Source of the DNA: an uncultured Chitinophagales bacterium
GTDB lineage: Bacteria > Bacteroidota > Bacteroidia > Chitinophagales > JADIYW01
Assembly: GCA_964653095.1 (NCBI GenBank)
Contig: CAZZEH010000001.1
Coordinates: 59,833 to 123,832, forward strand
DNA length: 64,000 nt
Reading direction: 5' to 3'
Below the pieces are notes generated by a model, which was not told where the DNA came from, ran no database searches, and saw only the letters and a program-made list of their open reading frames with translations. A program made the translations under genes and the position numbers. Each line of letters begins with the position of its first letter. Within the stretch, counting starts at the first letter, position 1. Positions 14,901 through 31,426 of this stretch are shown in pieces.

Positions 14901-15184
14901 CGTTTTAGGATAAAACCATCTGCCAGCCACCGCATTGTTTTTTTATTGCTTTCGTAAAGGTCTGCCGAAGAAAGCGTTTTAAGTTGCAGAATAATGGTTT
15001 GCGCTTCGATTTCGGTGAGTTTATCGTTTTGATAGCGATTGAGCAAATAGGCTCTTAAGTCTTCTTCAATCAGTACCTCGCTTTCATTGGAACGCACCAA
15101 ATTACTGCCCACAAAATGCGAATAGCCTTCATTTTCTATAAGCTCTATAAACGCTTGCTCTAATTTTGCTTCAGTGAATTTCAT
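11966..15184 (-). CDS. hsdR: type I restriction enzyme R subunit
   Basis: It has helicase motif I GATGSGKSFTM and motif II ISDEAHRSQ, plus an N-terminal HsdR nuclease region. It is 1072 aa and lies in an operon with hsdM and hsdS. Confidence 0.95.
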   Translation of the reverse strand: MKFTEAKLEQAFIELIENEGYSHFVGSNLVRSNESEVLIEEDLRAYLLNRYQNDKLTEIEAQTIILQLKTLSSADLYESNKKTMRWLADGFILKREDRSQKDIHISLIDYTGIDRQRPSTNLDIIVAEPAVQYPEDTNIYKFVNQLEIVGTERRIPDGILYINGLPLVVFEFKTAIQENTTIHNAYVQLTTRYKRDIPELFKYNAFCVISDGVNNKAGSFFAPYEFYYAWRRIAGLAKGVDGIDSMFTLIQGMLHKNRLRDIIQNFIYIPDTSKKDEKIVCRYPQYYAARRLFDNIKIAERPNGDGKGGTYFGATGSGKSFTMLYLTRLLMKSKHFESPTIVLITDRTDLDDQLSGQFTNAKQFIGDNMVESVESRADLRAKLQGRQSGGVFLTTIHKFTEDTELLTDRTNVICISDEAHRSQTNLDQKIRVTSDGVKKTYGFAKYLHDSLPNATFVGFTGTPIDATLDVFGDVVDAYTMTESVRDEITVRIVYEGRAAKVALHNSELEKIEKYYEEAAEEGANEYQIEESKKATATMNAILGDPDRLQKLAEDFVQHYENRVNEGATVKGKAMFVCSSRDIGYEFYKNVIALRPEWAEIQIAEEGVVLTDKEKREIKPMGKIKLIMTRGKDDPKEMYDLLGTKEYRKELDRQFKNEKSNFKIAIVVDMWLTGFDVPFLDSIYIDKPIQQHNLIQTISRVNRKFKGKNKGLVVDYIGIKKAMNMALAKYNKGERENFEDIQESLIVVRNHLDLLAKIFHKFDSSKYFNGTALEQLNTLNMAAEYVQLTKELEIRFMGLVKRLKAAYDICAGSEQLTQRERDYTHFYLAVRSIVFKLTKGNAPDTAQMNAKVREMIKNALESDGVQEIFVLGDEKQSEQDLFSEDYLAKIDKIKLPHTKIKLLQQLLAKAIGEMKKVNKVKGIDFTKKMQTLVERYNERKEDDVLRSEVYEEMAEHLTNLIWEVQKEFTAGDELGIDFEEKAFYDILKDLCVKYDFHYPEDKLIVLAQAVKDLVDSQAKYPDWSKREDIKSALKVGLIILLDEHGYPPVERDEVYQDIFEQAENFKKNRVITK

Positions 15185-16221
15185 TTATCAGTTTCTTTGG
15201 GTGGAAGTTCCTTTTTGATTATTCTATCAAAATCACTTTCAAATAACCTGTCCTGTATAATTCTGTATTTTTCAAACTCACTTTCTGCGTGAATTCTGGC
15301 AATTTCGGCAGTTACTTTGCCTGCATTTTGTAATATTTCCCTATCGGTAGCTGCTATAAATTTATTCAATCGAGTTTCCCAATCTTCCATTGTCATAGGA
15401 ATTTCCCTCGTAGCCATATCTTCCGCTATATCCAAATAGGCGGAAACCAAACGCTGTAATTGTTGCATTTCGTTTTCCGATAAATAGTTTTTAGCTACAC
15501 TAACATCAAATTTTTGGATTTTACCTTTTGGAGCATCTTTCCAAGTGGTCAATCCCATATTTTCTTTTTGGTGGTCGGCTCGATTTATGATTACTTCCGC
15601 TGCTGTTTGCCCGTGAATTGCCCAATGTAATTTATTCTGCACCACAGCAAAAAAGCGTTTGGTTGCCTGAGCAGTTACATCATAATCAATGGACGTAGCA
15701 TAAATGTCCGTTATCTTTTGATAGAATTTTCGTTCACTTAAACGGATTTCCCGAATGCGTTGGAGTTGTTCTTCAAAATACTTTTTACCGAGAATAGTAC
15801 CATCGTTTTTAAGACGTTCATCGTCCATTGCAAAACCTTTAATGGTAAATTCCTGTACGATTTGCGTTGCCCATTTACGGAATAATACGGCACGTTCGGA
15901 ATTTACTTTGTAGCCCACAGCAATAATAGCCGAAAGATTATAGTGTTTGGTATTGTAGTTTTTGCCGTCTTGAGCAGTTATTCGAAATTTTCGAATAACT
16001 GAATTTTCTTCCAATTCACTATCAGAGAATATTTTTTTTAGATGATAATTAATAGTGTGCGTTTCTACATCGTAGAGTGTTCCCATCATTTTTTGAGTAA
16101 GCCAAATATTTTCATCCGCATAGATAACTTCCACTCCGCTTTCACCTGTAGCTGCAATAAATGTTAAGTATTCAGCTGTAGAAGAACGCACCAATGATTT
16201 TTTATCTTTATTTTTTTTCAT
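15181..16221 (-). CDS. rhuM: RhuM-family protein
   Basis: The N-terminal pattern is GVEVIYADENIWLTQKMMGTLYDV...INYHLKNIF-like, with NLSAIIAVGYKVNSERAVLFRKWAT. Its stop overlaps the hsdR start (ATGA). Confidence 0.85.
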   Translation of the reverse strand: MKKNKDKKSLVRSSTAEYLTFIAATGESGVEVIYADENIWLTQKMMGTLYDVETHTINYHLKKIFSDSELEENSVIRKFRITAQDGKNYNTKHYNLSAIIAVGYKVNSERAVLFRKWATQIVQEFTIKGFAMDDERLKNDGTILGKKYFEEQLQRIREIRLSERKFYQKITDIYATSIDYDVTAQATKRFFAVVQNKLHWAIHGQTAAEVIINRADHQKENMGLTTWKDAPKGKIQKFDVSVAKNYLSENEMQQLQRLVSAYLDIAEDMATREIPMTMEDWETRLNKFIAATDREILQNAGKVTAEIARIHAESEFEKYRIIQDRLFESDFDRIIKKELPPKETDK

Positions 16222-16241
16222 ATTATTGGCTATTTTTTCTA

Positions 16242-16355
16242 TTAAAGAAATAAAGTGGATGTTTTCTTTTGTGAAAACCCTAATTAATTTTCTACGCAGA
16301 CATCTATTATGATGTTGTCGTTTGGATTTTGGTATATGAGAATATTGTTGTTCAT
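16242..16355 (-). pseudogene. decayed fragment of a RhuM/Fic-type N-terminal domain
   Basis: The minus strand reads MNNNILIYQNPNDNIIIDVCVEN*LGFSQKKTSTLFL*. This parallels EVIYADENIWLTQKMMGTLY of the intact rhuM but contains an in-frame stop and ends after ~37 codons. Confidence 0.4.
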
Positions 16356-16366
16356 ATTGTCTGGAA

Positions 16367-16795
16367 CTATGATTTAGATTGATTATTTGATGGACTTTGA
16401 TTTCTTTTGGGTTTCATTACTCTTTTGAATTGAAGGGAAGTGTTGCCAAAATTGATGAGCAAGCCTATTTCCATATTATACGCCTCCAAATAATTAATAG
16501 CTTGAGCTAAATGCACATCTTCCAGTTCTTTGACAGCCTTAATTTCCAACATAATTTTATTTTCAATAAAAAAATCAACTCTCCTTTTACCTATATCATA
16601 TCCTTTGTATTGTAAAGGCATTTCTTGTTCTCTAACGTGGACGATACCCTGCATGTTTAATTCTATGGATAATGCTCTTTGGTACACTACTTCCTGAAAT
16701 CCATTTCCCAAATATCTGTGTACTTCCATTGCACAGCCAATAATCTTGCCTGTTAATTCTGAATATTTGTATTGTTCATTAATCATAGTATTCAT
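16367..16795 (-). CDS. GxxExxY-family protein (PD-(D/E)XK-like)
   Basis: It contains the GFQEVVY (GxxExxY) motif, D..ENKIMLEIK (D-E-x-K), and the pattern HLAQAINYLEAYNMEIGLLINFG. Confidence 0.85.
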   Translation of the reverse strand: MNTMINEQYKYSELTGKIIGCAMEVHRYLGNGFQEVVYQRALSIELNMQGIVHVREQEMPLQYKGYDIGKRRVDFFIENKIMLEIKAVKELEDVHLAQAINYLEAYNMEIGLLINFGNTSLQFKRVMKPKRNQSPSNNQSKS

Positions 16796-16810
16796 TCAAT
16801 CATTTTAAAA

Positions 16811-17938
16811 TCATAGTTCAAGACTATTCTCCACAACCCCTCTCATCAACACCGGGCAAAGCGGTTTTACCATTTCTTTTAATTGCTCATTAATGCGTTT
16901 TCTACTTTCTAAAGCATGGTATAGAGTTACAATAGCTTCTTGTTTTCCTATGCTTGGAATGGGAATTTTTATTTCTGTAAATCTTTCCCAATCTAAACTT
17001 GCTCTCACACTACTATCGCTGTAAAACCATCCCTTTCGATTAAACTCTGGACGATAAAACCACAGCATTAAAAATTCAGGAATAATAATTTTTTCATCTA
17101 ATACTTTAAATACGTGATAAGCTGGTGATATAATAGCAGGTTCTTCAAATGAATATAGAACAACTCTTACTGTTTCATCTCTGCCAACTTGCATTGCTGA
17201 ATATGCAAATTCACCTTTCTGAATAATTTTGTATTTCACTAAGTTTTCTGCGGTAGTCTTTGCTTTTGAAGGCATAAAAACTTTCTCTACATTAATTCCA
17301 AGTAGATTTGTTATTTCATTGTTTATATTCCTATTATCAACCAATTCGACTAAATTGCCAATTGAATCTATGTTTTCATCTTTGACAGTGTCCATATAAG
17401 TATCGCATATCAACTGCAAGTCCTCCAAGCTACTTTCATACACTTTTTGGTTGTTGAGCAAACCTTGATAAATAGCTACATATTTACGTTGTTCGGAAAT
17501 ATCGGGAATTGGGATTTCAATATCGCAAAAACGCTCCCATTCCAAACTTGCTCTTACACTGCTATCGCTAATAAACCAACCATATCTATCCGACTCTGGA
17601 CGTTGAAACCACATCATCATATATTCTGGAATTAGCTCGTTTTCATCTTTACTTTCAATAACCAAATAGGCAGGCGAAATAATTGCAGGCTCATCACCTG
17701 TATATAGAGCAAGACGAATGGTTTCATCTCTACCTACTTGCATTGCTGAATAAGCAAACTGACCTTTTTTAATAATTTTATATTTAGACAAGTCTGTACC
17801 CGAAACATTGGCAACGGAAGGCATAAAGTTTTTGGTAATATTGATGCCCAAAAGATTTGTAACAGCCAAATCAATATTTCTGTTATCTACCAATTGTATG
17901 TAGTCGCCTAAACGTTTATATGTTTTATTTTCAGTCAT
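16811..17938 (-). CDS. hsdS: type I restriction enzyme S (specificity) subunit
   Basis: Two TRD plus conserved-helix halves are present. The internal duplication has an ungapped 183-aa offset. The gene lies between hsdM and hsdR. Confidence 0.9.
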   Translation of the reverse strand: MTENKTYKRLGDYIQLVDNRNIDLAVTNLLGINITKNFMPSVANVSGTDLSKYKIIKKGQFAYSAMQVGRDETIRLALYTGDEPAIISPAYLVIESKDENELIPEYMMMWFQRPESDRYGWFISDSSVRASLEWERFCDIEIPIPDISEQRKYVAIYQGLLNNQKVYESSLEDLQLICDTYMDTVKDENIDSIGNLVELVDNRNINNEITNLLGINVEKVFMPSKAKTTAENLVKYKIIQKGEFAYSAMQVGRDETVRVVLYSFEEPAIISPAYHVFKVLDEKIIIPEFLMLWFYRPEFNRKGWFYSDSSVRASLDWERFTEIKIPIPSIGKQEAIVTLYHALESRKRINEQLKEMVKPLCPVLMRGVVENSLEL

Positions 17939-19139
17939 TCTTAATGCTTAATTGTTGCTCTATTTCTTCAATGGTAGGCAATGAAGATTTTAAATTTTCA
18001 GGTACTATTTGTGTAAGTTCAAATTCGCTCACACCCATTGGTTTATTAATATCTCGCAAAGCAAACTCTGCCTCTAAATTATTCTTTTCTCTACACATTA
18101 AAATACCAATGGTTGGTTTGTCGTTATCTTCTTTTAATAAGGAGTCAACAGCGGAAAGATAAAAATTTAATTTTCCTGCATATTCGGGAATGAAGCTGGT
18201 GTTTTTCAGTTCAATAACCACATAACATTTCAGCTTGATGTGATAAAACAATAAATCGATGTAATAATCTTTATTGGCAATTTCAAGATGATATTGTTGT
18301 CCAACAAAAGCAAAACCCTTTCCTAATTCCAAAAGGAATTTTTTGATATGGTTTACCAATTGATTTTCAATATCTCTTTCTCTGTAATTTTCAGAAAGCT
18401 GAAGAAAATCAAAAATATATGGGTCTTTGAGTGTTTGTTGTGCTAAATCGGAAAAAGGTTCCGGAAGAGTATTTGAGAAATTAGTTATTGCACCGCCTTT
18501 TCTTTGAAATAGATTTGATTTAATCTGTAAGGTCAAAGTATCTCTACTCCAATTGTTTTCTTTGGTTTTTTGAATATAAAAGAAGGCTTCATTTAAATCT
18601 TTGATTTTGGTTATTATTACAATAATATGTCCCCAAGGTATTTGAGCAATTACGCTTTCTAATATAGTTTGGTCAACAGCTTGTTGGCTTTTTGCAATAT
18701 CCTTGTTTTCAGCACCTTGCAATTGGTTCGCAACTTGTGAACCAATTGTGTTTTGCGTGTCTTCAAATAGGTTCACAGCCTGTGAACTAATTTCGTTTTG
18801 CGTGTCTTCCAATTGGTTAACAGCCTGTAAACTAATTTGAAATTCACCCTCAAGTTGGGAACTAAAAGCGAAGTATTCATAAAAAAGCCTACAGAATTTT
18901 AGGTTTGAAACCGAAAAACCTTTCATCTCCGGAAACTCATCTTTTAAGTCCTTTGAAACATTTTCTAAAACCTTATCTCCCCAATTACTTGTTTTGATTT
19001 TTTCAGAAAGCATTTTCCCCAAATCCCAATAAAAAAGAATGAGTTCTCTGTTTACAGCAACTGCCGCTTTTAATTGAGCCGAGCGAATTTTCTGCTTAAC
19101 TTCCCGAATCCATATTTTATAATTTTCATCAATTTGCAT
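17931..19139 (-). CDS. YhcG/DUF1016-family PD-(D/E)XK nuclease-domain protein
   Basis: The N-terminal DUF1016 helical pattern is WIREVKQKIRSAQLKAAVAVNRELILFYWDLGKML. The C-terminal part is FAFVGQQYHLEI...IDLLFYH..L.CYVVIELK. Confidence 0.85.
   Translation of the reverse strand: MQIDENYKIWIREVKQKIRSAQLKAAVAVNRELILFYWDLGKMLSEKIKTSNWGDKVLENVSKDLKDEFPEMKGFSVSNLKFCRLFYEYFAFSSQLEGEFQISLQAVNQLEDTQNEISSQAVNLFEDTQNTIGSQVANQLQGAENKDIAKSQQAVDQTILESVIAQIPWGHIIVIITKIKDLNEAFFYIQKTKENNWSRDTLTLQIKSNLFQRKGGAITNFSNTLPEPFSDLAQQTLKDPYIFDFLQLSENYRERDIENQLVNHIKKFLLELGKGFAFVGQQYHLEIANKDYYIDLLFYHIKLKCYVVIELKNTSFIPEYAGKLNFYLSAVDSLLKEDNDKPTIGILMCREKNNLEAEFALRDINKPMGVSEFELTQIVPENLKSSLPTIEEIEQQLSIKND
18706..18840. repeat. 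3 x 45-bp in-frame tandem repeat inside the yhcG-like gene
   Basis: Units 18751-18795 and 18796-18840 are near-identical and 18706-18750 is degenerate. They encode SQAVNQLEDTQNEIS / SQAVNLFEDTQNTIG / SQVANQLQGAENKDI. Confidence 0.8.
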
Positions 19140-19151
19140 AGCTTGTCGTTT

Positions 19152-20756
19152 TTAAAGTTCGTACCCCAAAGTTTTAAAAGCGTTAATCAATTGCTCCTGT
19201 GATTCTTTTTCTTTTTTCAACAGGGCTTTGAAATCTTGTTGAATCCGCTTCATTTCGGTGTCGAAATCAATACCACTGTCTTTGTCCACAAATTCAATGT
19301 ATTTACTGGGTACTAAGGAGAAATCATTGGCTACTACATCGACAAAGTTGGCAGATTTGCAAAACTCCGGCACGTTTTTATAGGATGAAGTTGGAGCTTC
19401 ATCCAGCCCAGGGGTCTGCCAGTTATGGTAATTTGCAGCAATTTTTTGAATGTCTTCTTCAGTTAGTTCCACATACTTCTTTTCATATTCGCTTCCCCAA
19501 CGTCTTAAATCCATAAACAAGATTTCTCCCGTACGGTCTCTGTAGTTTTTGGGTTTCTCCTTTGTATCATCGGTGCGTGCTTTTTTGTTTTTGTTCAAAA
19601 TCCAAAGCGTCACACTGATATCGGTGGTATAAAAAGTATTTCGTGGAATAATGATGATGGCTTCTACCAGGTCGTTTTCAATTAATTTCCTACGGATTTT
19701 ATATTCATCGCCACCACCTGACAAAGCGCCATTGGCAAGAATGAAACCTGCAACGCCATTTTCAGAAAGCTTGCTCACCATATTCAAAATCCAGCCATAG
19801 TTGGCGTTGCTTTTGGGTGGCACTTCGTAGCCCATCCAACGCGGGTCGTCCAACAATTCATTCTCTCCCCGCCAATCCTTCAGGTTAAAGGGTGGGTTTG
19901 CCATAATATAATCTGCTTTCAGGTCTTTGTGTTGGTCGTTGGAGAATGTATCTGCGTGTCTATCACCAAGATTAGCAGAAATGCCCCGAATAGCAAGGTT
20001 CATTTTTGCCAATTTGTAGGTAGTAGGTGTATTTTCCTGTCCGTAAATAGAAACTTCCTTTTTGTTTCCTTGATGACTTTCTATAAATTTGATGGACTGC
20101 ACAAACATTCCGCCTGTACCGCAACAAGGGTCATAAATAATGCCTTTGTAAGGTTCAATCATTTCTGCAATCAGGTTGACAATGGTTTTAGGTGTATAAA
20201 ACTCGCCTTTGCCTTTTCCGCTGCTTTCTTTCAGCGCAAATTGACCCAAGAAATATTCATACACGCGGCCAATAACATCTTGCCCTTTGTCTTTGAGGGT
20301 ATCAATTTCGTTGATGGTGTCAAGTAATGAAGCCAATTTGGTTTTATCAAATGCCAAACGGGAAAAATAATTGTCTGGCAAAGCTCCTTTCAATGCAGGG
20401 TTGTTTTTCTCAATGGTGTTGAGTGCTGTATCAATTTTAAGTGAAATATCGTTTTGTTTGGCATTTTTGATAATGTAGCTCCATCGAGAAATTTCTTCCA
20501 AATAGAATACATTTTTCATTGTGTAGAAATCCCTCATTTCTACATATTTCTCTTTGCCTTCGACCAAAAGTTCATCTCTTCTTTGCTCAAATTTATCTCC
20601 TGCAAATTTTAAGAAGATTAAACCGAGAACCACGTGTTTGTACTCAGAAGGTTCTACTGAACCTCTCAATTTATCGCACGATTGCCATAAAGTTTCTTCA
20701 ATTGATTTTTCTTTCTTGCCCTGAGCTTGTCGTACGAGTACTTTCTGTTTGGCCAT
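19152..20756 (-). CDS. hsdM: type I restriction enzyme M subunit (N6-adenine DNA methyltransferase)
   Basis: It has the HsdM N-terminal domain, the AdoMet motif IYDPCCGTGGM, and the catalytic NPPF (IMANPPFN). Confidence 0.95.
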   Translation of the reverse strand: MAKQKVLVRQAQGKKEKSIEETLWQSCDKLRGSVEPSEYKHVVLGLIFLKFAGDKFEQRRDELLVEGKEKYVEMRDFYTMKNVFYLEEISRWSYIIKNAKQNDISLKIDTALNTIEKNNPALKGALPDNYFSRLAFDKTKLASLLDTINEIDTLKDKGQDVIGRVYEYFLGQFALKESSGKGKGEFYTPKTIVNLIAEMIEPYKGIIYDPCCGTGGMFVQSIKFIESHQGNKKEVSIYGQENTPTTYKLAKMNLAIRGISANLGDRHADTFSNDQHKDLKADYIMANPPFNLKDWRGENELLDDPRWMGYEVPPKSNANYGWILNMVSKLSENGVAGFILANGALSGGGDEYKIRRKLIENDLVEAIIIIPRNTFYTTDISVTLWILNKNKKARTDDTKEKPKNYRDRTGEILFMDLRRWGSEYEKKYVELTEEDIQKIAANYHNWQTPGLDEAPTSSYKNVPEFCKSANFVDVVANDFSLVPSKYIEFVDKDSGIDFDTEMKRIQQDFKALLKKEKESQEQLINAFKTLGYEL

Positions 20757-21140: not shown

Positions 21141-22316
21141 TTATTGCGGAATCCTATTTACAGAAGAAGATGAAGAGAGAAAGGCATTTGAAAAAATCCA
21201 TCCTTTCAGACTGTCTGCAAGTTCTCTCTGAGCGGCTTCATTCAAATGATACGTATCATGTGGAGAGATATTTTTCTTCTCCGTTTTGAGCCGAAATAGC
21301 TTGGATGAATATCCCGACAAAATTTTTACCAGTCTGAAATCATATTTAGTTTTGCTCAATTTTATAAAGCGTTTCAAATTTTTGTCATACATCCATTGTC
21401 CATCCTCTATGTCTGAATAAAATTGATTTTCTGAAACAAACACATTAAAACTTGCCTGATGATTCACGCACACACTTTGTATGGAGTCCAAAAGTGCCCG
21501 AGTCAGCCGAATACCGTATTCTAACCTTTTGGTCATAGTATCAGAATACAAAATCAGGTGCGTTTTTTCTTCTTTCAATTTTTCACTGATTCCCACCCAA
21601 GGAGTAGTTTTTTTGCTCAGCGAAGTATCCGCTCCGATCTCCGCTCTCGGAGGAAGAAAATTTTTACTCCAGACATCATCTAATTTTTGAGCTTTTCTAT
21701 GCTGTATGGCCCGCTCAAATAAAGCGGCTATTTTAAGTTCTCTTGTCTGCCGAAATTCAATATCAGACAGTTCCAAAACAAGCTTATCCTGCCGGAGTAT
21801 AAAAGTCGGTTTGGGAGTTCCGTTCCAGGGCCAATGAGTGGGAAACATATTGTTCCAGATGTCATTTTCGGGAGTAAACCACAAGAAAACATGGTCCATC
21901 TCATGTTTTTCAAGGACCTTTTGGAACCAAATCAACTGCTGATCCTGCCCGTATCCTCCGGTTCCCACAGTAAATATCCGATAAGTCGTCGAATCCGAAT
22001 TAAAATTTAGTACTCTTTGCAACAAATTTTCCATTTGAAGACTGTCTGCCAAATCCAGTGATTCGACCTGTGAATCTCCAAGAAGTAAAATCCACTTTTC
22101 GCTCTTCGGTTTAATATCCGGAATTGGTTTCCCTTTAAATCCATACTGATTGACCTCATTTGCATCGGGATTATTGGAGAGATAAGTCCACCCTGTCGGG
22201 ATTACTTCCAACTCTTTCGGGAAGTTTATCTTTCTGAAAAAAAACTCAGAAAGTATAAGCATGATTACTAAGGCAATCAGAAACAAAGCGATATTTCCTT
22301 TTACTGCTTTTCTCAT
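21141..22316 (-). CDS. membrane-anchored SGNH/GDSL-type hydrolase-like protein
   Basis: There is one N-terminal TM. Block I is LLLGDSQVE, block III-like is ENDIWN, and block V is HDTYHLN (DxxH). The ATG at 22316 is preferred over the TTG at 22331. Confidence 0.6.
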   Translation of the reverse strand: MRKAVKGNIALFLIALVIMLILSEFFFRKINFPKELEVIPTGWTYLSNNPDANEVNQYGFKGKPIPDIKPKSEKWILLLGDSQVESLDLADSLQMENLLQRVLNFNSDSTTYRIFTVGTGGYGQDQQLIWFQKVLEKHEMDHVFLWFTPENDIWNNMFPTHWPWNGTPKPTFILRQDKLVLELSDIEFRQTRELKIAALFERAIQHRKAQKLDDVWSKNFLPPRAEIGADTSLSKKTTPWVGISEKLKEEKTHLILYSDTMTKRLEYGIRLTRALLDSIQSVCVNHQASFNVFVSENQFYSDIEDGQWMYDKNLKRFIKLSKTKYDFRLVKILSGYSSKLFRLKTEKKNISPHDTYHLNEAAQRELADSLKGWIFSNAFLSSSSSVNRIPQ

Positions 22317-22429
22317 TTTTATGAGAACCAAGTTAGAAATTTATTACTTTCATATCTAATGAAAAAATGGAAGTTCGATTCAATGAACTGCCCAATATGA
22401 AATTTTAATATTTTGCAGTAACTTAAGAC

Positions 22430-24145
22430 ATGCTGTCTGAAAACGAGAACAATAAGATTCGCCAAGACATTATTCGATTTTTAAATGAATTGGACAGGAG
22501 TTCGTATGCGGACTTATATCAGAAAACAATCTATCCACACTCTGAAAAATTTGAAAGCAATATTGATATTTTAATTGCATTCACTCCAAAATTCATTCAA
22601 AGCTTAGCCTGGCTTTCAGACAATCCGACATCTTTTGCAGAAGGCTCAAAGTTGTTTTTAGACGGCATCAAAAACTCCCGGGCTTATAAGGATATTCTTT
22701 TCGCAATCTGGTCAAATCACCCCGACAAAACAGTTAAATTTATTACTGATTTGGATGAAGTCAGGCTAAACAGATTCATTAGAAAAATGGAATTTAAAGA
22801 CTCTTTCTATTATGAAATTGGGCCTCCAAACGACCGCAACCCAATTTATTTCCTGTATGACCGGGACACTCCATCGGCAAAAAGAGAAACATACGACAAC
22901 ATTCTTGATTTAGACGCAACTTACAATGGAGATACCGAATTCTATTCGAGAGATTATCTCAGCTGGCCGGGATTATTTCACATTTATTTTCCCGACAGAA
23001 AGATTATTTTAACTTCCGACAAGACAAAAATTCCCGATAAATATATTTACATTCTAACTTTCAACTACTTCAAATCATTTATTGAGCAACAGCAATTAAG
23101 AAACAGTCATTCTCTGCCTATTGATGAAAATATTTTAAAAGATGCTCAAATTGGTAAAGCTCTTATTTTATGGAATGACAGCCACGAATATTCAAATATT
23201 TATAAGAATAAAAAATGGTGGAACAAGGCTTTAAGCCAAAAAAAGATTGCACAAAATAGTGTTGTATTTACAGGAGATTTTACCGGGTACAGAAAAATAA
23301 ATGCTCCAAACAGATTATTTCCTTTTAGCATATTTCAAAAATCGAATCAAATTAAAACCAAGCTGTATGCAATCAGATATTTTGAAGAAGCACTAAAATC
23401 AATTATTCTTTACCATTATCCTAATTACTCTTTTAACAAAAGGTACGAAGCTCTCCATTCTGTGCAAAACGGCATCAAACACTTCCTTTGTCTGAATAAT
23501 ATTATAAAAGATTACAGAGTCACCTTAAGCTATCTCTTTTACAAAAATAATTTTCTTGAAACTTCTTATATCAGTCAGAAGGCTTTTAACGGTACAAAGG
23601 ATTTTCAGTTTAATCACAACTCACATTTATCAATGAAATCATTAATTGATTCTGAGCTATTTGAAAAATTCAGAGCAAGTCTTCCATGGGTTGTGGATAC
23701 AAAAGAGCAGGAGTCCGGATGGTGGAATACAATACCTATAAAAAATATCAGCCGGTCTTTTGTTTGGGTGAATACAGAAACAGAGTTTGGAAGCTATACC
23801 CCCAAAGAAAAATCTTTTATCACAGAAAAAACTTATAAACCTATAGCGTTTTTCATGCCTTTTATTATGGTGGGACCTCCACTGACTCTGCAAACCCTGA
23901 GAGAAGAAGGTTATCAGACTTTCTCAAAATGGTGGGATGAATCTTATGACAAAGAGGTTAATTCTTTAAAAAGAATGAAAAAAATTGAAGCATTACTCAT
24001 TGAAATCTCAAAATGGAGCAGAAAGAAATTACTTTCTGTTACCTTAGCGATGAAAGATGTGTTGGAACACAATCACAGGCATTTATTAAACGTAAAAAGA
24101 AGTTTGCCTTCTTTGCAGGCAGTCTTGGATTTATACCACAAATGA
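22430..24145 (+). CDS. hypothetical 571-aa protein (orphan; C-terminus with a weak glycosyltransferase-like FITEK...MVGPP motif)
   Basis: It is a long uninterrupted ORF. Its stop overlaps the ATG of the radical-SAM gene (ATGA at 24142-24145). No confident family call is possible. Confidence 0.6.
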   Translation: MLSENENNKIRQDIIRFLNELDRSSYADLYQKTIYPHSEKFESNIDILIAFTPKFIQSLAWLSDNPTSFAEGSKLFLDGIKNSRAYKDILFAIWSNHPDKTVKFITDLDEVRLNRFIRKMEFKDSFYYEIGPPNDRNPIYFLYDRDTPSAKRETYDNILDLDATYNGDTEFYSRDYLSWPGLFHIYFPDRKIILTSDKTKIPDKYIYILTFNYFKSFIEQQQLRNSHSLPIDENILKDAQIGKALILWNDSHEYSNIYKNKKWWNKALSQKKIAQNSVVFTGDFTGYRKINAPNRLFPFSIFQKSNQIKTKLYAIRYFEEALKSIILYHYPNYSFNKRYEALHSVQNGIKHFLCLNNIIKDYRVTLSYLFYKNNFLETSYISQKAFNGTKDFQFNHNSHLSMKSLIDSELFEKFRASLPWVVDTKEQESGWWNTIPIKNISRSFVWVNTETEFGSYTPKEKSFITEKTYKPIAFFMPFIMVGPPLTLQTLREEGYQTFSKWWDESYDKEVNSLKRMKKIEALLIEISKWSRKKLLSVTLAMKDVLEHNHRHLLNVKRSLPSLQAVLDLYHK

Positions 24146-25530
24146 AATTTTCGAAAGTCATAAAACAAACCATTCTTCCTTCAGGAGATTTCCAGAAAGC
24201 AGTACAGGGATATAATTTGAAAAGAAGTCCTCTGACTTGGAATACCTTTTGTCAGGCGCCTTTTACCAATATGTACATTGCACACCACGGCTATGTGCGG
24301 GCATGCTGCTACATTGCCGTACACGTATTGGGCGTTTGGCCGCATAAGAGTCTGATGGAAATTTGGAATGGTCCGAAAGCTGAAGAACTCAGAGAAGCAC
24401 TGAGTAACTATGATTTGTCAAAAGGATGCGGTACTTGTCATCAACAGCTTATGGCACGAAATTATGACGGTCTGAAGGCATCACAATTCAATTATCACAA
24501 AAGGAATAATAACGGCTTTCCTACCTGTATAGAATTTGAGTTAGACAATAAATGTAATCTCGGATGCACGATGTGCGATGAAAACTTCTCTTCGGTGATT
24601 GCACACAATAAAGGATTAAAAGCCTATAAAACACCCTATAATGAAGACTTTTTAGAGCAATTAAAACCTTTTATTCCTCATCTGCACGAAACTAAATTTT
24701 ACGGTGGTGAGCCATTCATGATAAAAATTTATTACGACATCTGGGATTTAATTTACAAGTTGAATCCTCAGTGCAGTATTAATATCCAGACGAATGGTAC
24801 AATTATGAATAAGAGAGTGAAAGAGCTTCTTGAAAGACCAAATATCAACTTTAACGTGTCTATTGACAGCCTGCAGGAAAAAAACTACGAAAGCATTCGC
24901 GTAGGTGCAACTTATTCGGAAACAATGAGTAATCTGGAGCGCTTCATTGATTATTCCAGAAAACACAAAACGTTTATGGGAATTTCATCTTGTATGATGC
25001 AAAATACCGCACATGAAGCCCCGGATTTTATTCGTTTTTGCAATGAACGGGATATTCAAATATACTTTCATACGGTCATACAACCCGAAGATGCCTGTAT
25101 CAAAAATATGGATAAAAAAGATATTGAAAATCTTTTAAAACATCTGAAATCTCAGGATTTTCAGGCTAAAACACCATTGCACAGAAAAAACATCAACCAT
25201 TATCGGGATTTTATTAAACAGGTAGAATATTGGTTAGAACATAAAGATGCAAATGAAACAGTCATGACACGCAATCCGGTTCAGGATTGGGATGATTTTT
25301 TTGATCGGATAGAAAGAGCTTCCATTGCTATCTTTGGGGAGGAGCCCGGTTTAAAAAAATCAGAGCATTTTAAATCAAATATTGAAAAAATGTATGCACT
25401 GGGAATTATCAAAGATAAAAAGGATATTTTCAGGCACGTACAACACGACGATTTAAGCAGTTCAGTACATAAAATTGTAGATTTATCCTTCGAACAGTTG
25501 GTACAGGCGTATCAAAACGAACACTTGTAA
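24142..25530 (+). CDS. radical SAM enzyme with an N-terminal twitch (half-SPASM) domain
   Basis: The radical SAM motif CNLGCTMC (CxxxCxxC) lies at 24553-24576. Upstream are CQAPFTNMYIAHHGYVRAC (C-x12-G-x4-C) and CGTC (CxxC). The ATG at 24142 is chosen over the upstream in-frame start at 24013. Confidence 0.85.
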   Translation: MKFSKVIKQTILPSGDFQKAVQGYNLKRSPLTWNTFCQAPFTNMYIAHHGYVRACCYIAVHVLGVWPHKSLMEIWNGPKAEELREALSNYDLSKGCGTCHQQLMARNYDGLKASQFNYHKRNNNGFPTCIEFELDNKCNLGCTMCDENFSSVIAHNKGLKAYKTPYNEDFLEQLKPFIPHLHETKFYGGEPFMIKIYYDIWDLIYKLNPQCSINIQTNGTIMNKRVKELLERPNINFNVSIDSLQEKNYESIRVGATYSETMSNLERFIDYSRKHKTFMGISSCMMQNTAHEAPDFIRFCNERDIQIYFHTVIQPEDACIKNMDKKDIENLLKHLKSQDFQAKTPLHRKNINHYRDFIKQVEYWLEHKDANETVMTRNPVQDWDDFFDRIERASIAIFGEEPGLKKSEHFKSNIEKMYALGIIKDKKDIFRHVQHDDLSSSVHKIVDLSFEQLVQAYQNEHL

Positions 25531-25572: not shown

Positions 25573-25986
25573 TTATCTAATCGTCCCAATAAAACGGCGG
25601 CAATCATAAACCGGAAGTTCTGAAAAGTAAAAATCTTCGACATCTTCGGTGATAACAGCCTGACAACCGTACTGCAATGCGGAATAATACTCCAAACCAT
25701 CTTCAAAATCTAACACTTTTGGATTGGAAGCAGCCAAAGAAACCGTTTCCCTGTTAGTCTCTATGATGCTCAAATGCTCAGAAAGAATCACCATCTTCTC
25801 TTTGGCCCGTTTTGTCCCGCATTTCTTTTCAGCAAAATAGACAGCAATTGCCAGACAAATCGGTGAAGTACATACCTCATATCCATACCGCTCTGTCAAA
25901 CTTAAAATTCTTGATGAATAGGTAAACAAAGGATACTCCCTGTTAAGAACAGAGACAATGACATTGGCATCCAGGAAAATTTTCAA
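25573..25986 (-). CDS. PIN-domain toxin (VapC-like)
   Basis: The N-terminus is MKIFLDANVIV. Conserved acidic residues include ITEDVEDF. It is 137 aa and starts 2 nt after the antitoxin gene. Confidence 0.85.
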   Translation of the reverse strand: MKIFLDANVIVSVLNREYPLFTYSSRILSLTERYGYEVCTSPICLAIAVYFAEKKCGTKRAKEKMVILSEHLSIIETNRETVSLAASNPKVLDFEDGLEYYSALQYGCQAVITEDVEDFYFSELPVYDCRRFIGTIR

Positions 25987-25988
25987 AA

Positions 25989-26243
25989 CTATTTCTTGGA
26001 ATCAAAAAAATCAGATTTCATTTTTTTACGTGAGGGCGTACGCCTGTACTCTATTCGCTCTTCTGCCACCATATTCACCCAGTCGGCTATCGGCAAATCA
26101 TCAATCAGACGGGCATTTCCGGAAGTCAGCTTTTCATATATTAACTCCGTCAGCCGAGACAAACTCATCCCTCTGTCCGCCGCATAGTCTTTAGCCTTTT
26201 CGATGACCTCTTTATTAAAGGAAAGTGTGATTTTGGCATCCAT
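25989..26243 (-). CDS. ribbon-helix-helix-type antitoxin (VapB-like)
   Basis: The N-terminus MDAKITLSFNKEVIEKAKDYAADRGMSLSRLTELIYEKL follows a beta-strand plus two-helix RHH pattern. It lies directly upstream of the PIN gene. Confidence 0.75.
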   Translation of the reverse strand: MDAKITLSFNKEVIEKAKDYAADRGMSLSRLTELIYEKLTSGNARLIDDLPIADWVNMVAEERIEYRRTPSRKKMKSDFFDSKK

Positions 26244-26363: not shown

Positions 26364-27347
26364 ATGAAGAGTATTTTGATTACCGGGATTACCGGGTTGA
26401 TAGGCAAACATCTGATGTACAGACTTTTGGAAGAAGGCGGATTTAAAATCAAAGGACAGTACTTTTCTCCCCGAAATACAGATGAATACACCTCCGCAGG
26501 TGTGGAAATGGTGCAGGCAGATATTTGTCAGCCCGGGCAAATTTCAGGACTGACCGCAGATTGCGAAATTGTGGTACACAGTGCGGCGAGAGTCATTGAC
26601 TTTGGTTCCAAAGAAGACTTTTATCTGTCCATTTATGATGCGACCGAATGGGTTTTGAGCGACGCCCTCCAACACGGAGTCAGGCATTTTATTTATCTCA
26701 GTTCTTTCGGACCGGCTACCTGTTTAGACAGATCGGAGAAACTGCCGGACGAAAGTGTACCATTGGTCAAAAGCGGAGTTTTCTATGATGATGCCAAAAT
26801 TGATGCAGAAGAATTAGTAAAGTCTTTTTGCACCAAACACAATATAATTTATACGATTATCAGACCTTCCGCTATTATCGGTCCGGACAGTATCTGGGTA
26901 CGCGAACCTCTCAAAAGAGCTCAAACTTTTCTTGGAGTTAAGCTGATTGAAAATGGTCGTTTCGATGCCTGTCTAACAGATGCTGATAATTTGGCGGACG
27001 GGATTTTTAAAACTATTACCAATCCGATTGCTCATAATCAGACCTATTTCTTCATGGATGATTATCAGATAAGCTGGAAAAAATATCTGACAGATTTACT
27101 GGCAATGAAAGGCTACCGCCCCAAAGGAAATATATCCAAAAAAACAGCCCTTCGACTGGCAAAAATTATGGGTAAAACCTTCCCTGTTTTTGGTGTCAAT
27201 CCTCCCATCTCTCCAAAATCTATTATGGCTACCGGATCAGACCGCCGAGTAGATTGCAGTAAAGCCAAAAAAGAACTGAATTGGAAAAGTCAAGTAACTT
27301 ATGAAGAAGCTATGCAAAAAATCAAAAACTCTTTGAATGGCAACTAA
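26364..27347 (+). CDS. NAD-dependent epimerase/dehydratase (extended SDR)
   Basis: The Rossmann motif is ILITGITGLIGKHL. The catalytic motif is YDDAK (YxxxK). Confidence 0.9.
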   Translation: MKSILITGITGLIGKHLMYRLLEEGGFKIKGQYFSPRNTDEYTSAGVEMVQADICQPGQISGLTADCEIVVHSAARVIDFGSKEDFYLSIYDATEWVLSDALQHGVRHFIYLSSFGPATCLDRSEKLPDESVPLVKSGVFYDDAKIDAEELVKSFCTKHNIIYTIIRPSAIIGPDSIWVREPLKRAQTFLGVKLIENGRFDACLTDADNLADGIFKTITNPIAHNQTYFFMDDYQISWKKYLTDLLAMKGYRPKGNISKKTALRLAKIMGKTFPVFGVNPPISPKSIMATGSDRRVDCSKAKKELNWKSQVTYEEAMQKIKNSLNGN

Positions 27348-27826: not shown

Positions 27827-27988
27827 ATAATATTGTTTTGGACGAAGATACTTTAAAAAATACTATTCCATGTCCGTTTTAATGAATTACAGCCTCTCCG
27901 AAGAGCGCGAATAAAGTATTTTTCCGCATTGATATGGAAAAAGGAGAATTTTAGCATCTTTATATACAGCACGTATGAATTTTATTTT

Positions 27989-30900
27989 ATGACAGCCCAC
28001 GCACAGTTTTTATTTGACGAAATACTTCAAACTCATCTCAGCGAAAAAACGCTTGCCGAAAAATATTCTGCAATGAGAAAAATTTTGGAAAGTGCACTGA
28101 GACTGATTACCTCCAAACAGGAGATTCAATTTCCCGATTTATACTCCAAACTCACCTATGTGACCGATTTGCTTAAGTTTTCGTCCCGGGAGCAGTTCGG
28201 AATACAGAATATGAGAAAAAATGCGCACCTTATTATTCTGAATAAATTCACACCCGACGAATATACCTACTATCGGGATTTGAGTGCATTAACCTACAGT
28301 GTTGCAAAAATCACAGAAGCTACTATACCGGTAAATCTGCTAACAATCGTGCAAAGCCCTCCCCTGCCGGAAAGCAAGCCAGCTTCAAAAAAGACCGAGT
28401 CCGAACATCTGAATCTGATACGTTTTTATGTTTTAAAAGTCAGTGAAGGAGAAATCCTGGGCAGAGCCGATCAGTATCCGGAAGACTATCTCAATGCAAT
28501 TTACGACCCCAAAAACTCTCCATTCAAAGAAAGTCTGAGTTATGTCAAACCGGGGCAGGTGATGCACCTGATTAACTGTCAAAAAGAAGGCAATAAAGTT
28601 ACACCTGAACTGTTCATACTCGAACCGGACTATCTTTTGGATATCAGCTCGGTAGCAGAATGTTTCAAATCATACGGTACTCATCCGTATAATTATTTTA
28701 TGAGCCGGATTACTTCCAAAGAAATTACTGTACCCATCCTGCTCGGTAATATCGCCAATCACTTCTTAGATATTTTTGTCAACCTGCCAAAAGACAGTAC
28801 TGCAAAGTTTAAAGACACCATGAAAGAAGTGTTTAAGCTTTTCCCGTTTGATATTTCCGTGAACACTGCTTTAGACGACAGAGCACATCTCCTTAGACTG
28901 TTTGACGACGCAGAACGGCAGTTTAATCATATTAAACATGTGGTACAGGAAGTGCTTCCTCAACAAAATATTCCGTTAGAACAGGCCGTTTTGGAGCCGA
29001 GTTTCTTCTGTCCGCAATTGGGTATTCAGGGGCGTTTGGACTTCCTTTCCATTCGTCCGGAAAACACTACGGTGATTGAACTTAAATCCGGCAAAGCTCC
29101 GTTTCCGGAAAGCAATACATCTTTGGTCGGTATCAATCACAGTGTTCAGCTTTTCTTATACCAAATTGTAATTCAAATGGTTTTGGGTATAAAATTCAAG
29201 CACATAAACAGCTATCTGCTGTATTCCAAATACAATGACCCAAAGTCCAACCTAAGAATGGTCAGACCCTATATGGAAAAAATTAAAGAAATTCTGGACC
29301 TGAGAAATCAGATTGTTTTCATCGAAAGAAGTGTTTCCGAAAATGAAGATTTATTTGAGAAAATCATCAGCGATATTTCTCCCAAAGTACTGATTAATGC
29401 AGGCGGCCAGAATGAGAAATTTATACAAAACTATATCATCCCGCAGATTGAGGCGTTCAAACAGCCTTTTGTCCATGCCGGTGAATTAGAAAAAGCATAC
29501 TTCTACAGTTTCTACAGCTTTGTCAGCAAGGAACTTTACATTACCAAAGCAGGAGTCAGTCACTATGACCAGGCATTGGGACACTCCGGCATTTGGCTCA
29601 ATGAAGCAGATGTTAAAATAGATGCCGGCGATATTCTCTGGGACCTGCAGATCACAGAAAATCTGTCTGATACGGAAAGGCCTGTTATTCGTCTGAGCAT
29701 CCCGGAATATAATGCTGATTTTCTTCCAAATTTCAGGCAGGGCGATATTGCTATCCTCTATCCCCGCAACCATGCCGGAGATAATGTAAGCAACAAACAA
29801 ATTTTTAGAGGAAGTATTATTGAAATCAATCATGAAGAAGTGGTTCTGCTTCTCAGATACCGTCAAAACAACACCCATTTTCTCCCCAATGACAGTCTGT
29901 ATGCTATCGAGCATGACTTTTTGGAGTCCTCGTACCGGGCAATGTTCATGGGACTGTACACTTTTTTGGAAGCCAACCAGGACAGAAAAGATTTGCTGCT
30001 CAACCAAAGAGTTTTAAGAATCTCCAATCAGGTACAGCTCAACAGACCCTGCGAAATACCGGAAATACAGCAGATAGTAGAAAAAGCAAAGAAAGCAGAA
30101 GATTATTTTCTGCTTATCGGACCGCCGGGTACCGGAAAAACCTCAATTGCTCTGAAATCTATGGTGGACGAATTTTATTCCGAACCACAAACAAATATTC
30201 TGCTGCTGGCATATACCAACCGGGCAGTAGATGAAATATGTGAATCTATTTCACAAATACAGCCTGAAATTGAATACATACGCATAGGGTCTGAATTTTC
30301 CACAGAGAAGAAATTTCAGCATCGTCTGCTGCAAAATGTGATCAAGCCATTCAGCAAACGGAATGAAGTAAAAAATACGCTTCAAAACTGCAGAGTGTAT
30401 GTCGGCACAGTGGCCTCTGTCTCAGGTAAATCTGCTCTTTTCAAACTTAAAAAATTTGATGTGGCCATCGTGGATGAAGCTTCTCAAATTTTGGAGCCCC
30501 AGATTATAGGAATTCTGACTGCAAAACACCCGGATAATGCGCACGCCATTAAGAAATTTATTTTAATTGGGGATCACAAGCAACTGCCTGCTATCGTAGT
30601 ACAAAGTCCGAAAGCAAGTATTGTGCGGCATCCAAAACTTTTGGATATCGGAATCACCGACAGAAGAATCTCTCTGTTTGAACGACTATACAGATACCAC
30701 GAAAAAGATAAACACTCCCCACATTGGTCCATGCTGAAAAAACAGGGGCGAATGCATGCTCAAATCGCTGAATTTTCCAATAAAGAATTTTATGGCGGAG
30801 AACTGCAGGTCGTACCGGTGACCCATCAGAGAAAATCATTGGAATGGAATATCACGGACAGTAAAGATTTTTTGCAAAAAATTGCGGCAACTGAGCGTTT

Positions 30901-31426
30901 AGTGTTTTTCGCCTCGAAAAAAACAGATTCAGATCAATCTTTCAAAGTAAACTCTTTCGAAGCTGAACTGATTGCAAAATTGCTGGAAAACATACATTAC
31001 CTATACCAAACCCACCAGACAGAGTTTAATCCCAAAACATCAGTCGGCATTATTACTCCGTACAGAAGTCAGATTGCCCTGATCAGAAAAAAAGTCCTTG
31101 AACTCAATTTACCCGAACTGAATGAGATTACCATAGATACGGTTGAAAGATATCAGGGTTCACAACGGGATATTATACTGTATTCTTTTTGTGTAAATCA
31201 TGAAAATCAACTTGAATTATTATCCAACACCTTTATCGAAAACGGCATTTCAATTGACCGGAAACTCAATGTCGCCTTAACGAGAGCCCGAAAACAACTT
31301 TTCATCACGGGCAATCCATATTTTTTGGAAAAAAATGTCATCTTTAGTAAAATGACCGAACATATTCGAAAATACGGTATTTATATTGAGAGTGAGAGAT
31401 TAAATAAATCCGGCACCCGTCTGTAA
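27989..31426 (+). CDS. RecB-like PD-(D/E)XK nuclease fused to a Upf1/Dna2-type SF1 helicase (Nhi-like)
   Basis: Nuclease motifs are GRLDF, IELK and QLFLY (QxxxY) at ~29020-29165. Helicase motifs are GPPGTGKTS, IVDEASQ, IGDHKQLPA, GRMH, YQGSQRDII and NVALTRAR. The ATG at 27989 is preferred over the TTG at 27929. Confidence 0.85.
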   Translation: MTAHAQFLFDEILQTHLSEKTLAEKYSAMRKILESALRLITSKQEIQFPDLYSKLTYVTDLLKFSSREQFGIQNMRKNAHLIILNKFTPDEYTYYRDLSALTYSVAKITEATIPVNLLTIVQSPPLPESKPASKKTESEHLNLIRFYVLKVSEGEILGRADQYPEDYLNAIYDPKNSPFKESLSYVKPGQVMHLINCQKEGNKVTPELFILEPDYLLDISSVAECFKSYGTHPYNYFMSRITSKEITVPILLGNIANHFLDIFVNLPKDSTAKFKDTMKEVFKLFPFDISVNTALDDRAHLLRLFDDAERQFNHIKHVVQEVLPQQNIPLEQAVLEPSFFCPQLGIQGRLDFLSIRPENTTVIELKSGKAPFPESNTSLVGINHSVQLFLYQIVIQMVLGIKFKHINSYLLYSKYNDPKSNLRMVRPYMEKIKEILDLRNQIVFIERSVSENEDLFEKIISDISPKVLINAGGQNEKFIQNYIIPQIEAFKQPFVHAGELEKAYFYSFYSFVSKELYITKAGVSHYDQALGHSGIWLNEADVKIDAGDILWDLQITENLSDTERPVIRLSIPEYNADFLPNFRQGDIAILYPRNHAGDNVSNKQIFRGSIIEINHEEVVLLLRYRQNNTHFLPNDSLYAIEHDFLESSYRAMFMGLYTFLEANQDRKDLLLNQRVLRISNQVQLNRPCEIPEIQQIVEKAKKAEDYFLLIGPPGTGKTSIALKSMVDEFYSEPQTNILLLAYTNRAVDEICESISQIQPEIEYIRIGSEFSTEKKFQHRLLQNVIKPFSKRNEVKNTLQNCRVYVGTVASVSGKSALFKLKKFDVAIVDEASQILEPQIIGILTAKHPDNAHAIKKFILIGDHKQLPAIVVQSPKASIVRHPKLLDIGITDRRISLFERLYRYHEKDKHSPHWSMLKKQGRMHAQIAEFSNKEFYGGELQVVPVTHQRKSLEWNITDSKDFLQKIAATERLVFFASKKTDSDQSFKVNSFEAELIAKLLENIHYLYQTHQTEFNPKTSVGIITPYRSQIALIRKKVLELNLPELNEITIDTVERYQGSQRDIILYSFCVNHENQLELLSNTFIENGISIDRKLNVALTRARKQLFITGNPYFLEKNVIFSKMTEHIRKYGIYIESERLNKSGTRL

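Follow-up and report, generated by a model that had tools for sequence, protein, structure and literature searches.

A gene for a radical S-adenosylmethionine (SAM) protein of 462 amino acids (aa), located at 24142..25530 on the forward (+) strand of a 64,000-nucleotide stretch of contig CAZZEH010000001.1 from an uncultured Chitinophagales bacterium, is predicted to encode a twitch domain that precedes the radical SAM barrel. The whole stretch is called the window throughout, and coordinates refer to it unless another locus is named. The assignment draws on the open reading frame (ORF) and its sequence, on the NCBIfam model NF033640 and on the Pfam domains SPASM and Radical_SAM. We lean towards regarding the protein as a glycan-tailoring radical enzyme of the SPASM/twitch clade, the auxiliary domain of which has been moved to the N-terminus. 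The architecture as such has already been named by NCBI, and the gene is a newly recorded member on the periphery of a named, unstudied family. Taken alone, it adds this one member along with a rare family of glycosyltransferase (GT)-B-like partner proteins; if the glycan-tailoring role is true, the family would constitute a novel class of enzymes that modify carbohydrates independently of oxygen.

Gene start and motif order

The ORF list contained an open frame of 505 aa (24013-25530, +), within which the ATG codon at position 24142 was recognized as the start. This codon overlaps the stop codon of an upstream gene encoding 571 aa (ATGA, 24142-24145), the same 462-aa product was obtained by an independent gene call on a public contig, and the N-termini of homologous proteins (MKF, MKY, MNY) line up with it. 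The true start of the gene is located upstream of the N-terminal cysteine residues. The original prediction, made from the DNA letters and a list of ORFs, had allowed for a start downstream of these residues, a possibility that is removed by the agreement between the homologous N-termini and the independent gene call. Within the 462-aa protein the motifs are arranged in the order C37-x12-G50-x4-C55-C56, C96-x2-C99 and C138-x3-C142-x2-C145. The ORF translation also confirmed that C-x12-G-x4-C, the CxxC within GCGTC and CNLGCTMC had been located correctly beforehand.

The predicted N-terminal twitch domain

The N-terminal domain comprises residues ~34-106 (24241..24459, +) and was delimited by a Pfam SPASM match, invariant cysteine and glycine residues, a profile match to BtrN and the secondary structure of an AlphaFold2 (AF2) model. 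The first cysteine block, with C37 at 24250-24252, G50 and C55/C56 at 24304-24309, reads CQAPFTNMYIAHHGYVRAC(C), and 40 residues past C56 the segment G95-C96-G-T-C99 (GCGTC, 24424-24438) provides C96 (24427-24429) and C99 (24436-24438). Pfam SPASM (PF13186) matched residues 37-100 over the complete profile (positions 1-67 of 67) with an E-value of 3.2e-10 and 40.6 bits against a cutoff of 21.5, and the CX9-15GX4C...CX2C motif of the SPASM/twitch subgroup is present above the Pfam gathering threshold. The alignment of 34 homologs (30-73% identity) shows no variation at C37, P40, G50, C56, C96 and C99 and hardly any at C55.

No cysteine occurs at positions +5 and +9 past C99, and the full seven-cysteine SPASM motif (CX2CX5CX3C and a final cysteine) is accordingly absent. 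A survey of 158 full-length paralogs from 80 genomic loci yielded 145 proteins with the same motif order, the twitch motif preceding CxxxCxxC in every one of these (145/145), and none of the 145 continues into CX2CX5CX3C. On account of both observations the N-terminal domain is classified by its sequence as twitch and not as SPASM, which bears out the initial description of a twitch-like domain without CX5CX3C. The SPASM enzymes anSME, SuiB, CteB and PqqE share the first motif half CX9-15GX4C...CX2C with the protein described here, and their cores match by Foldseek and by hidden Markov model (HMM) comparison; however, the present protein lacks CX5CX3C and the final cysteine, carries its auxiliary domain at the N-terminus and is devoid of a recognition element (RRE) for peptides that are made by ribosomes and modified after translation (RiPPs). 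Since CX5CX3C and the final cysteine are missing, a second auxiliary cluster is not expected.

A profile of residues 28-124 was compared with all sequences of the PDB and ranked BtrN, the butirosin 2-deoxy-scyllo-inosamine dehydrogenase (PDB 4M7S/4M7T), first with an E-value of 1.8e-6, the match covering BtrN residues 163-239 and thereby its C-terminal twitch domain. With a full-length profile BtrN was again first among the PDB entries, via the twitch domain and with an E-value of 9e-10. The four ligand cysteines of the two proteins align, with C169, C232 and C235 of BtrN pairing with C37, C96 and C99 in the profile alignment. The AF2 model of the radical SAM protein, with a predicted local distance difference test (pLDDT) value of 90 and a predicted template modelling (pTM) score of 0.87, displays a β-hairpin (43-46/51-53) between C37 and C55/56 and a helix (78-88) that is followed by C96/C99. 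The canonical twitch topology is defined by a cysteine before the hairpin, a cysteine after β2' and two cysteines after α2' (SkfB paper, PMC6231123), and the profile alignment and the AF2 model place the ligands of the N-terminal domain in this BtrN-type layout: one before the hairpin, one after β2' and two after α2'. Sequence and model thus identify residues 34-106 as a putative BtrN-type twitch domain, and what is known of the family suggests that its four invariant cysteines fully ligate one auxiliary [4Fe-4S] cluster.

An arrangement in which zinc occupies the N-terminal cysteines, or in which their role is purely structural, leaving the protein with a single Fe-S cluster, is extremely improbable. 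Four cysteines occurring as two pairs are able to bind zinc, but the spacing C-x18-C...C-x2-C is unlike that of a paired CxxC zinc ribbon, the Pfam SPASM threshold is passed, the ligands align with those of the homologous [4Fe-4S]-binding twitch domain of BtrN, and the predicted hairpin-helix topology fits the twitch fold. A zinc ribbon or poorly conserved cysteines had been named at the outset as outcomes that would overturn the twitch assignment; the invariance of the cysteines in the 34 homologs and the profile homology to the BtrN twitch domain speak against both.

The position of the predicted twitch domain distinguishes the protein from BtrN, a carbohydrate-type radical SAM enzyme in which the twitch domain is found behind the barrel (163-239 of ~250 residues). 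Here residues 34-106 precede a core that starts at residue ~126, and the inverted domain order noticed in the first reading of the sequence therefore stands, in this protein as in the motif-bearing paralogs. Further differences from BtrN are an additional C-terminal helical domain of ~135 residues and a core similarity that is not significant on its own. To our knowledge, the auxiliary domain is located behind the barrel in every solved structure of a SPASM/twitch radical SAM enzyme. Unlike these solved enzymes, the family appears from its sequences to have a SPASM/twitch-type domain attached before strand β1.

The radical SAM barrel and the C-terminal extension

Residues ~126-320 (24517..25101, +) are assigned as the radical SAM partial (β/α)6 barrel on the basis of Pfam PF04055, invariant motifs, the AF2 model and Foldseek comparisons. 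The CNLGCTMC motif with C138, C142 and C145 is encoded at 24553-24576 and the SAM-binding motif GGEPF at 24703-24717. PF04055 (Radical_SAM) matched residues 136-279 with an E-value of 7e-16 and 59.3 bits against a cutoff of 29.5, which places the protein in the superfamily, and C138, C142, C145, G188, G189 and E190 are invariant in the alignment of homologs. The AF2 core consists of six strands alternating with helices, the first strand β1 being formed by residues 129-132. Sequence and model are consistent in indicating a standard partial barrel with the SAM cluster site and the GGE motif.

Foldseek aligned only the core of the whole model, because the permuted domain remains unmatched in sequence order, and it returned BlsE, SkfB, SuiB, anSME and viperin over ~228 columns, with E-values of 1e-7 to 1e-6 for BlsE, SkfB, anSME and viperin. 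The top match was BlsE (PDB 7VOB; E 1.7e-7, ~228 columns, 18% identity, core only). BlsE acts on a glucuronic-acid nucleoside, and a UDP-sugar dehydrogenase is encoded next to orthologs of the radical SAM gene. BlsE nevertheless scores no better than peptide- or nucleotide-modifying enzymes, and a transfer of its function is therefore unjustified. A PDB search with the single sequence gave just a marginal match to the core of GDGT-MAS (E 0.008), and BtrN was retrieved only with the profile of the N-terminal domain. GDGT-MAS (Tes, PDB 7TOL) resembles the present protein in that a domain with an auxiliary [4Fe-4S] cluster precedes the core, in addition to the weak core match; it differs in that its N-terminal cluster is bound by C73/C77/C80 and a histidine within an unrelated fold, in the presence of rubredoxin and C-terminal cluster domains, and in its lipid substrate.

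The C-terminal helical extension comprises residues ~325-462 (25114..25527, +), with AF2 helices at 325-458 (~135 residues), in agreement with the ~130 helical residues that had been anticipated behind the barrel. The extension had no family match in Pfam. Conservation in the alignment of homologs is low beyond residue ~370, N350 being an exception, and the extension varies among the homologs. It may play a role in substrate or partner recognition.

Placement in the family NF033640

The original prediction had referred to an NCBI family of radical SAM proteins with an N-terminal twitch domain and expected that the protein would match it. This family exists: NF033640 (N_Twi_rSAM, 'twitch domain-containing radical SAM protein') was the top match by 30 orders of magnitude (E 9.8e-48), with residues 34-375 aligned to profile positions 2-371 of 398 and hence in the same order of twitch domain and core. 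The expectation held with respect to the end-to-end best match, but not with respect to the score, since 163.2 bits fall 7 bits short of the curated cutoff of 170, a near miss. A score below the cutoff means that the NCBI pipeline would name the protein just 'radical SAM protein', and close homologs carry this database name only. All 34 aligned homologs match NF033640, the best E-value being 6.6e-53. As judged from these sequence matches, the Bacteroidota clade of the protein appears to lie at the edge of the NF033640 model, and the protein is best described as a peripheral member of a family to which no function has been assigned.

A profile search resulted in 1,455 representatives of the family at 50% identity and E <= 1e-30, and a scan of GTDB species genomes yielded more than 460 confirmed matching stretches, mostly in metagenome-assembled genomes of Bacteroidota. 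Within the paralog survey, the C-x12-G spacing was found in 136 of the 145 motif-bearing proteins, and the distance between CxxC and CxxxCxxC is tightly conserved (median 38 residues). The equivalent of C55 forms part of a CC doublet in 99 of these 145 proteins.

Two or more family copies within 10 kb were detected in 48 of 79 loci. The largest accumulation is present in locus L086 (5824-19838), part of a 4.86-Mb metagenomic contig, where ten paralogous radical SAM genes of the N-terminal twitch type occur in a row that is interrupted by one unknown protein of ~409 aa and flanked by AsnB-like, GT2 and GT32-like genes. Specialists in radical SAM enzymes may find the permuted twitch domain curious; more intriguing are the arrays of tandem copies within undescribed glycan clusters, a multiplication of genes that hints at a combinatorial use of radical chemistry on sugars of the cell surface. 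Tandem copies are also found in loci L037, L047 and L075. Fused forms of double length occur among the representatives as well, namely P0141 (981 aa), P0142 (969 aa) and P0145 (961 aa).

The literature on radical SAM proteins in O-antigen or UbiA/AsnB contexts and on the product name given by the Prokaryotic Genome Annotation Pipeline (PGAP) provided no characterisation of the family. A lead from the Xanthomonas 'radical SAM' literature turned out to be unrelated.

The coupled partner and the gene context of related loci

The gene directly upstream of the radical SAM gene (22430..24145, +) is translationally coupled to it and encodes an orphan protein of 571 aa with a predicted GT-B glycosyltransferase-like fold. 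The protein has no match in Pfam or NCBIfam, and its family is very rare, with 20 homologs in 5.8 billion proteins. The AF2 model (pLDDT 84.6) comprises an N-terminal helical domain of ~120 residues, and the Foldseek matches are all GT-B enzymes (Tps1/OtsA, VldE, glycogen synthase and MurG). An invariant motif, E466-K-T-Y-K-P471 (EKTYKP), is located near the C-terminus. This co-encoded orphan protein had initially been proposed as a handle on the substrate; its predicted GT-B-like fold makes it more likely to be a pathway partner than the substrate itself.

A membrane-anchored SGNH/GDSL-like protein of 396 aa is encoded in the divergent orientation (21141..22331, -) and is characterized by an N-terminal anchor and the motif LLLGDSQVES. 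It was related by hhalign to a recurrent neighbour family with a transmembrane (TM) segment and a GDSL domain (probability 98.8%, E 4e-17), which shows weak matches to Pfam Lipase_GDSL_2. Orthologs of the 396-aa protein are found at the equivalent position in the loci L082 (58% identity) and L084 (42%). A tblastn search of the window neighbours against the 80 family loci gave nothing at E 1e-5, and conservation of the partner and of the SGNH-like protein is confined to the closest orthologous loci. Near position 22407 an imperfect Bacteroidetes-type -7 motif was the only one seen.

A comparison of close orthologs with 41-73% identity revealed a conserved block in the loci L082, L084, L089 and L091, consisting of the SGNH-like gene (-), a UDP-sugar dehydrogenase gene, the GT-B-like gene (~570 aa) directly upstream of the radical SAM gene, and the radical SAM gene itself. 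The genes beside these blocks encode a CMAS-like methyltransferase, UbiA, an AsnB-like amidotransferase, a GT2 enzyme and a carbamoyltransferase. The window contains the same block minus the dehydrogenase gene and minus the remaining cluster genes. In L082 a second partner paralog (545 aa) follows the radical SAM gene. The partner family can also be present in the absence of the radical SAM gene, as in locus L090.

The genes within 10 kb of family members were counted for the 80 loci after re-clustering at 70% coverage, with ORFs of at least 90 aa taken into account. An earlier single-linkage clustering was discarded, as fusion proteins had merged the UbiA-like, AsnB-like, X400 and GT32-like groups. 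The most frequent neighbours encode UbiA-like prenyltransferases (29 of 80 loci), an unknown family of ~400 aa (25), TM-SGNH proteins (23) and AsnB-like proteins (20), followed by methyltransferases (17), PhyH (16), GT32-like proteins (15), Wzt (13), Wzm (12) and carbamoyltransferases (11), and by B12-type radical SAM proteins and short-chain dehydrogenases/reductases (SDR) with 10 loci each. The Wzt protein of locus L085 carries a Wzt_C domain. Relatives of the radical SAM gene are accordingly located in glycan clusters of the ABC-transporter type that encode UbiA, AsnB-like, SGNH and PhyH proteins along with Wzm/Wzt. A family member from a cultured organism, named by PGAP 'twitch domain-containing radical SAM protein' (WP_221067113.1), is encoded on plasmid pRS11DPr1 of Methylomagnum ishizawai RS11D-Pr (37% identity) in a similar glycan cluster; its neighbours specify GT39, GT2, two GT4 enzymes, a polyprenyl synthase, asnB, UbiA, an ABC transporter, a methyltransferase, PhyH and a sulfotransferase.

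Two further contexts were recorded. The ~400-aa family, designated X400 and starting with MTSDKFVFVVCGAREH..., adjoins radical SAM genes of the N-terminal twitch type in locus L012 (12638-13825) and in 24 other loci, and it has no Pfam match. A distant relationship between the 571-aa partner and X400 was considered and ruled out (hhalign probability 0.2%). In locus L087 (10001-21368) the family member P0026 and an adjacent PhyH gene are positioned directly upstream of an aryl-polyene/flexirubin-like cluster, which, unlike the glycan clusters, contains genes for an aromatic ammonia lyase, a ketosynthase (KS), an acyl carrier protein (ACP), an LpxL-like acyltransferase, an ApeP-like protein and a halogenase.

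Proposed function and mechanism

The gene context suggests a surface glycan pathway of the ABC-transporter type in which the enzyme tailors a sugar, be it carried by a nucleotide, carried by a polyprenyl group or part of a polymer, and in which it would act alongside its coupled GT-B-like partner and the SGNH-like protein anchored in the membrane. In BtrN, four cysteines provide a fully ligated auxiliary [4Fe-4S] cluster, and the fully ligated clusters of BtrN and anSME have been proposed to oxidise the substrate radical intermediate (PMC6231123). A fully cysteine-ligated auxiliary cluster would therefore be expected to serve as an electron shuttle and not for substrate binding, and by analogy with BtrN the auxiliary [4Fe-4S] cluster of the present enzyme may represent an electron conduit. 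In canonical enzymes the twitch strand β1' packs beside strand β1 of the barrel (PMC6231123), so that a twitch domain joined directly before β1 could reach its usual position. By analogy, the N-terminal attachment can thus place the cluster where it is normally found. In a speculative reaction scheme, the 5'-deoxyadenosyl radical would take a hydrogen from a sugar carbon, and the substrate radical would be oxidised via the auxiliary cluster to a keto-sugar in the manner of BtrN. The net outcome might become an epimerisation if a reductase encoded nearby, or a cysteine such as C55 in the role of hydrogen donor, acted afterwards.

Several observations weigh against this overall reading. The similarities of the core detected by Foldseek and HMM searches fit sugar, peptide and nucleotide substrates alike, and the frequent UbiA and polyprenyl genes are equally compatible with a lipid-linked or a lipid substrate. 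HMMER pairs C187 of BtrN with C55, one residue off the invariant C56, and the GT-B match of the partner is weak (E 4e-4, TM-score 0.33-0.38). The searchable literature contains neither a characterised family member nor any mention of an N-terminal twitch or SPASM domain. In the window, moreover, the three-gene unit of SGNH-like, GT-B-like and radical SAM genes stands alone, with no large glycan cluster around it and no counterpart of the UDP-sugar dehydrogenase gene of the orthologous loci, and its flanks are occupied by a type I restriction-modification (R-M) system and a toxin-antitoxin pair.

The isolated position of the unit also bears on the idea that a larger glycan cluster once surrounded the gene and left it stranded as a remnant in this Chitinophagales genome, with an intact protein but no working pathway, which we regard as unlikely. 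Orthologous loci have genes for UDP-glucose dehydrogenase, UbiA, an AsnB-like protein, a methyltransferase and a carbamoyltransferase around the block, whereas no glycan-tailoring genes other than the three of the unit occur within ~20 kb in the window; the R-M system and the PIN-DUF6364 pair on either side and the existence of the partner family without a radical SAM gene in L090 point in the same direction. On the other hand, the ORF is of full length with all family-invariant residues kept, the translational coupling with the partner is intact, locus L082 is similarly compact, and the absent cluster genes may be located elsewhere in the genome.

The frequency of UbiA-like genes raises the possibility that the substrate is a lipid or the polyprenyl part of a lipid-linked intermediate, for instance a polyprenyl-phosphate carrier or the tail of a membrane lipid. 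UbiA-like prenyltransferases are the commonest neighbours and are likewise encoded in L089 and L092, genes for a polyprenyl synthase and for UbiA lie on the flanks of the Methylomagnum member, KS and ACP genes are found near the family members of L086 and L087, and the sole PDB match of the single sequence is to the core of the lipid-modifying GDGT-MAS, the N-terminus of which likewise holds an auxiliary cluster, though of another type. The latter match is, however, marginal and restricted to the generic core, and the N-terminal cluster of GDGT-MAS does not involve a twitch domain. The neighbourhood is dominated by glycosyltransferases, sugar dehydrogenase/epimerase genes, carbamoyltransferase and Wzm/Wzt with Wzt_C, and UbiA enzymes in such clusters are commonly makers of polyprenyl-phosphate sugars, which counts against a lipid substrate. 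We consider a lipid substrate to be rather improbable, although it retains a modest chance.

It is very unlikely that the enzyme is a RiPP or peptide maturase whose target is a short precursor missing from the annotation or a protein encoded nearby. Many SPASM/twitch enzymes are peptide maturases, the core showed secondary NCBIfam matches to WgkB, DynA, YhhB, GggB and PapB with E-values of 1e-8 to 1e-11, the clusters with a B12-type radical SAM protein, a PhyH hydroxylase and a methyltransferase are superficially proteusin-like, and precursors shorter than 90 aa fall below the size range of the ORF survey. Yet these peptide-maturase matches lie far under the cutoffs and cover the core only, the Pfam and NCBIfam scans revealed no RRE or other peptide-binding domain, with the twitch domain filling the N-terminus, and the conserved neighbours are glycan enzymes and the Wzm/Wzt exporter, with a GT-B-like protein as the coupled partner.

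A broader proposal extends the glycan-tailoring role to the family as a whole. According to this proposal, which we put forward as doubtful but worth stating in full, radical SAM proteins of the N-terminal twitch type would carry out the radical-based tailoring in a surface-glycan pathway that is widespread, mostly among Bacteroidota, and undescribed. The pathway would combine UbiA-type synthesis of lipid-linked sugars, an AsnB-like amidotransferase, a membrane-anchored SGNH protein, PhyH dioxygenases and export by Wzm/Wzt. Arrays of up to ten paralogs might each install a different oxygen-independent modification, such as a BtrN-like oxidation of a sugar hydroxyl group, and this oxidation together with an SDR reductase might result in an epimerisation analogous to that of DprE1/DprE2. 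With the twitch domain at the N-terminus, the C-terminal end would become available to a variable helical domain for substrate recognition, which could in turn have permitted the diversification of the family.

Other genes of the window

The radical SAM gene is followed by a PIN_3 toxin and DUF6364 antitoxin pair (25573-26243, -), which is located between this gene and an SDR gene (26364-27347). A pair of the PIN_3/DUF6364 family is also present ~7 kb from the ortholog P0006 in locus L085 (2298-2974). The SDR gene of the window is unrelated to the SDR family that recurs beside the radical SAM genes, and it was not counted as a member of the unit. Further downstream, a Dna2-like protein of 1165 aa with PD-(D/E)XK nuclease and AAA_11/AAA_12 helicase domains is encoded at 27929-31426 (+), preceded by a gene for a 140-aa membrane protein without a family match.

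The region upstream of the three-gene unit is occupied by the type I R-M system with the genes of HsdR, HsdS and HsdM (11966-20756, -), the subunits of which are interleaved with a RhuM-family gene (15181-16221) and a gene for a YhcG/DUF1016 PD-(D/E)XK nuclease (17931-19139). A toxin-like HipA_C-type kinase gene (9919-10923, -) is located upstream of the R-M system as a further defence or toxin-antitoxin element of the window, the remainder of which consists of ordinary chromosomal genes.

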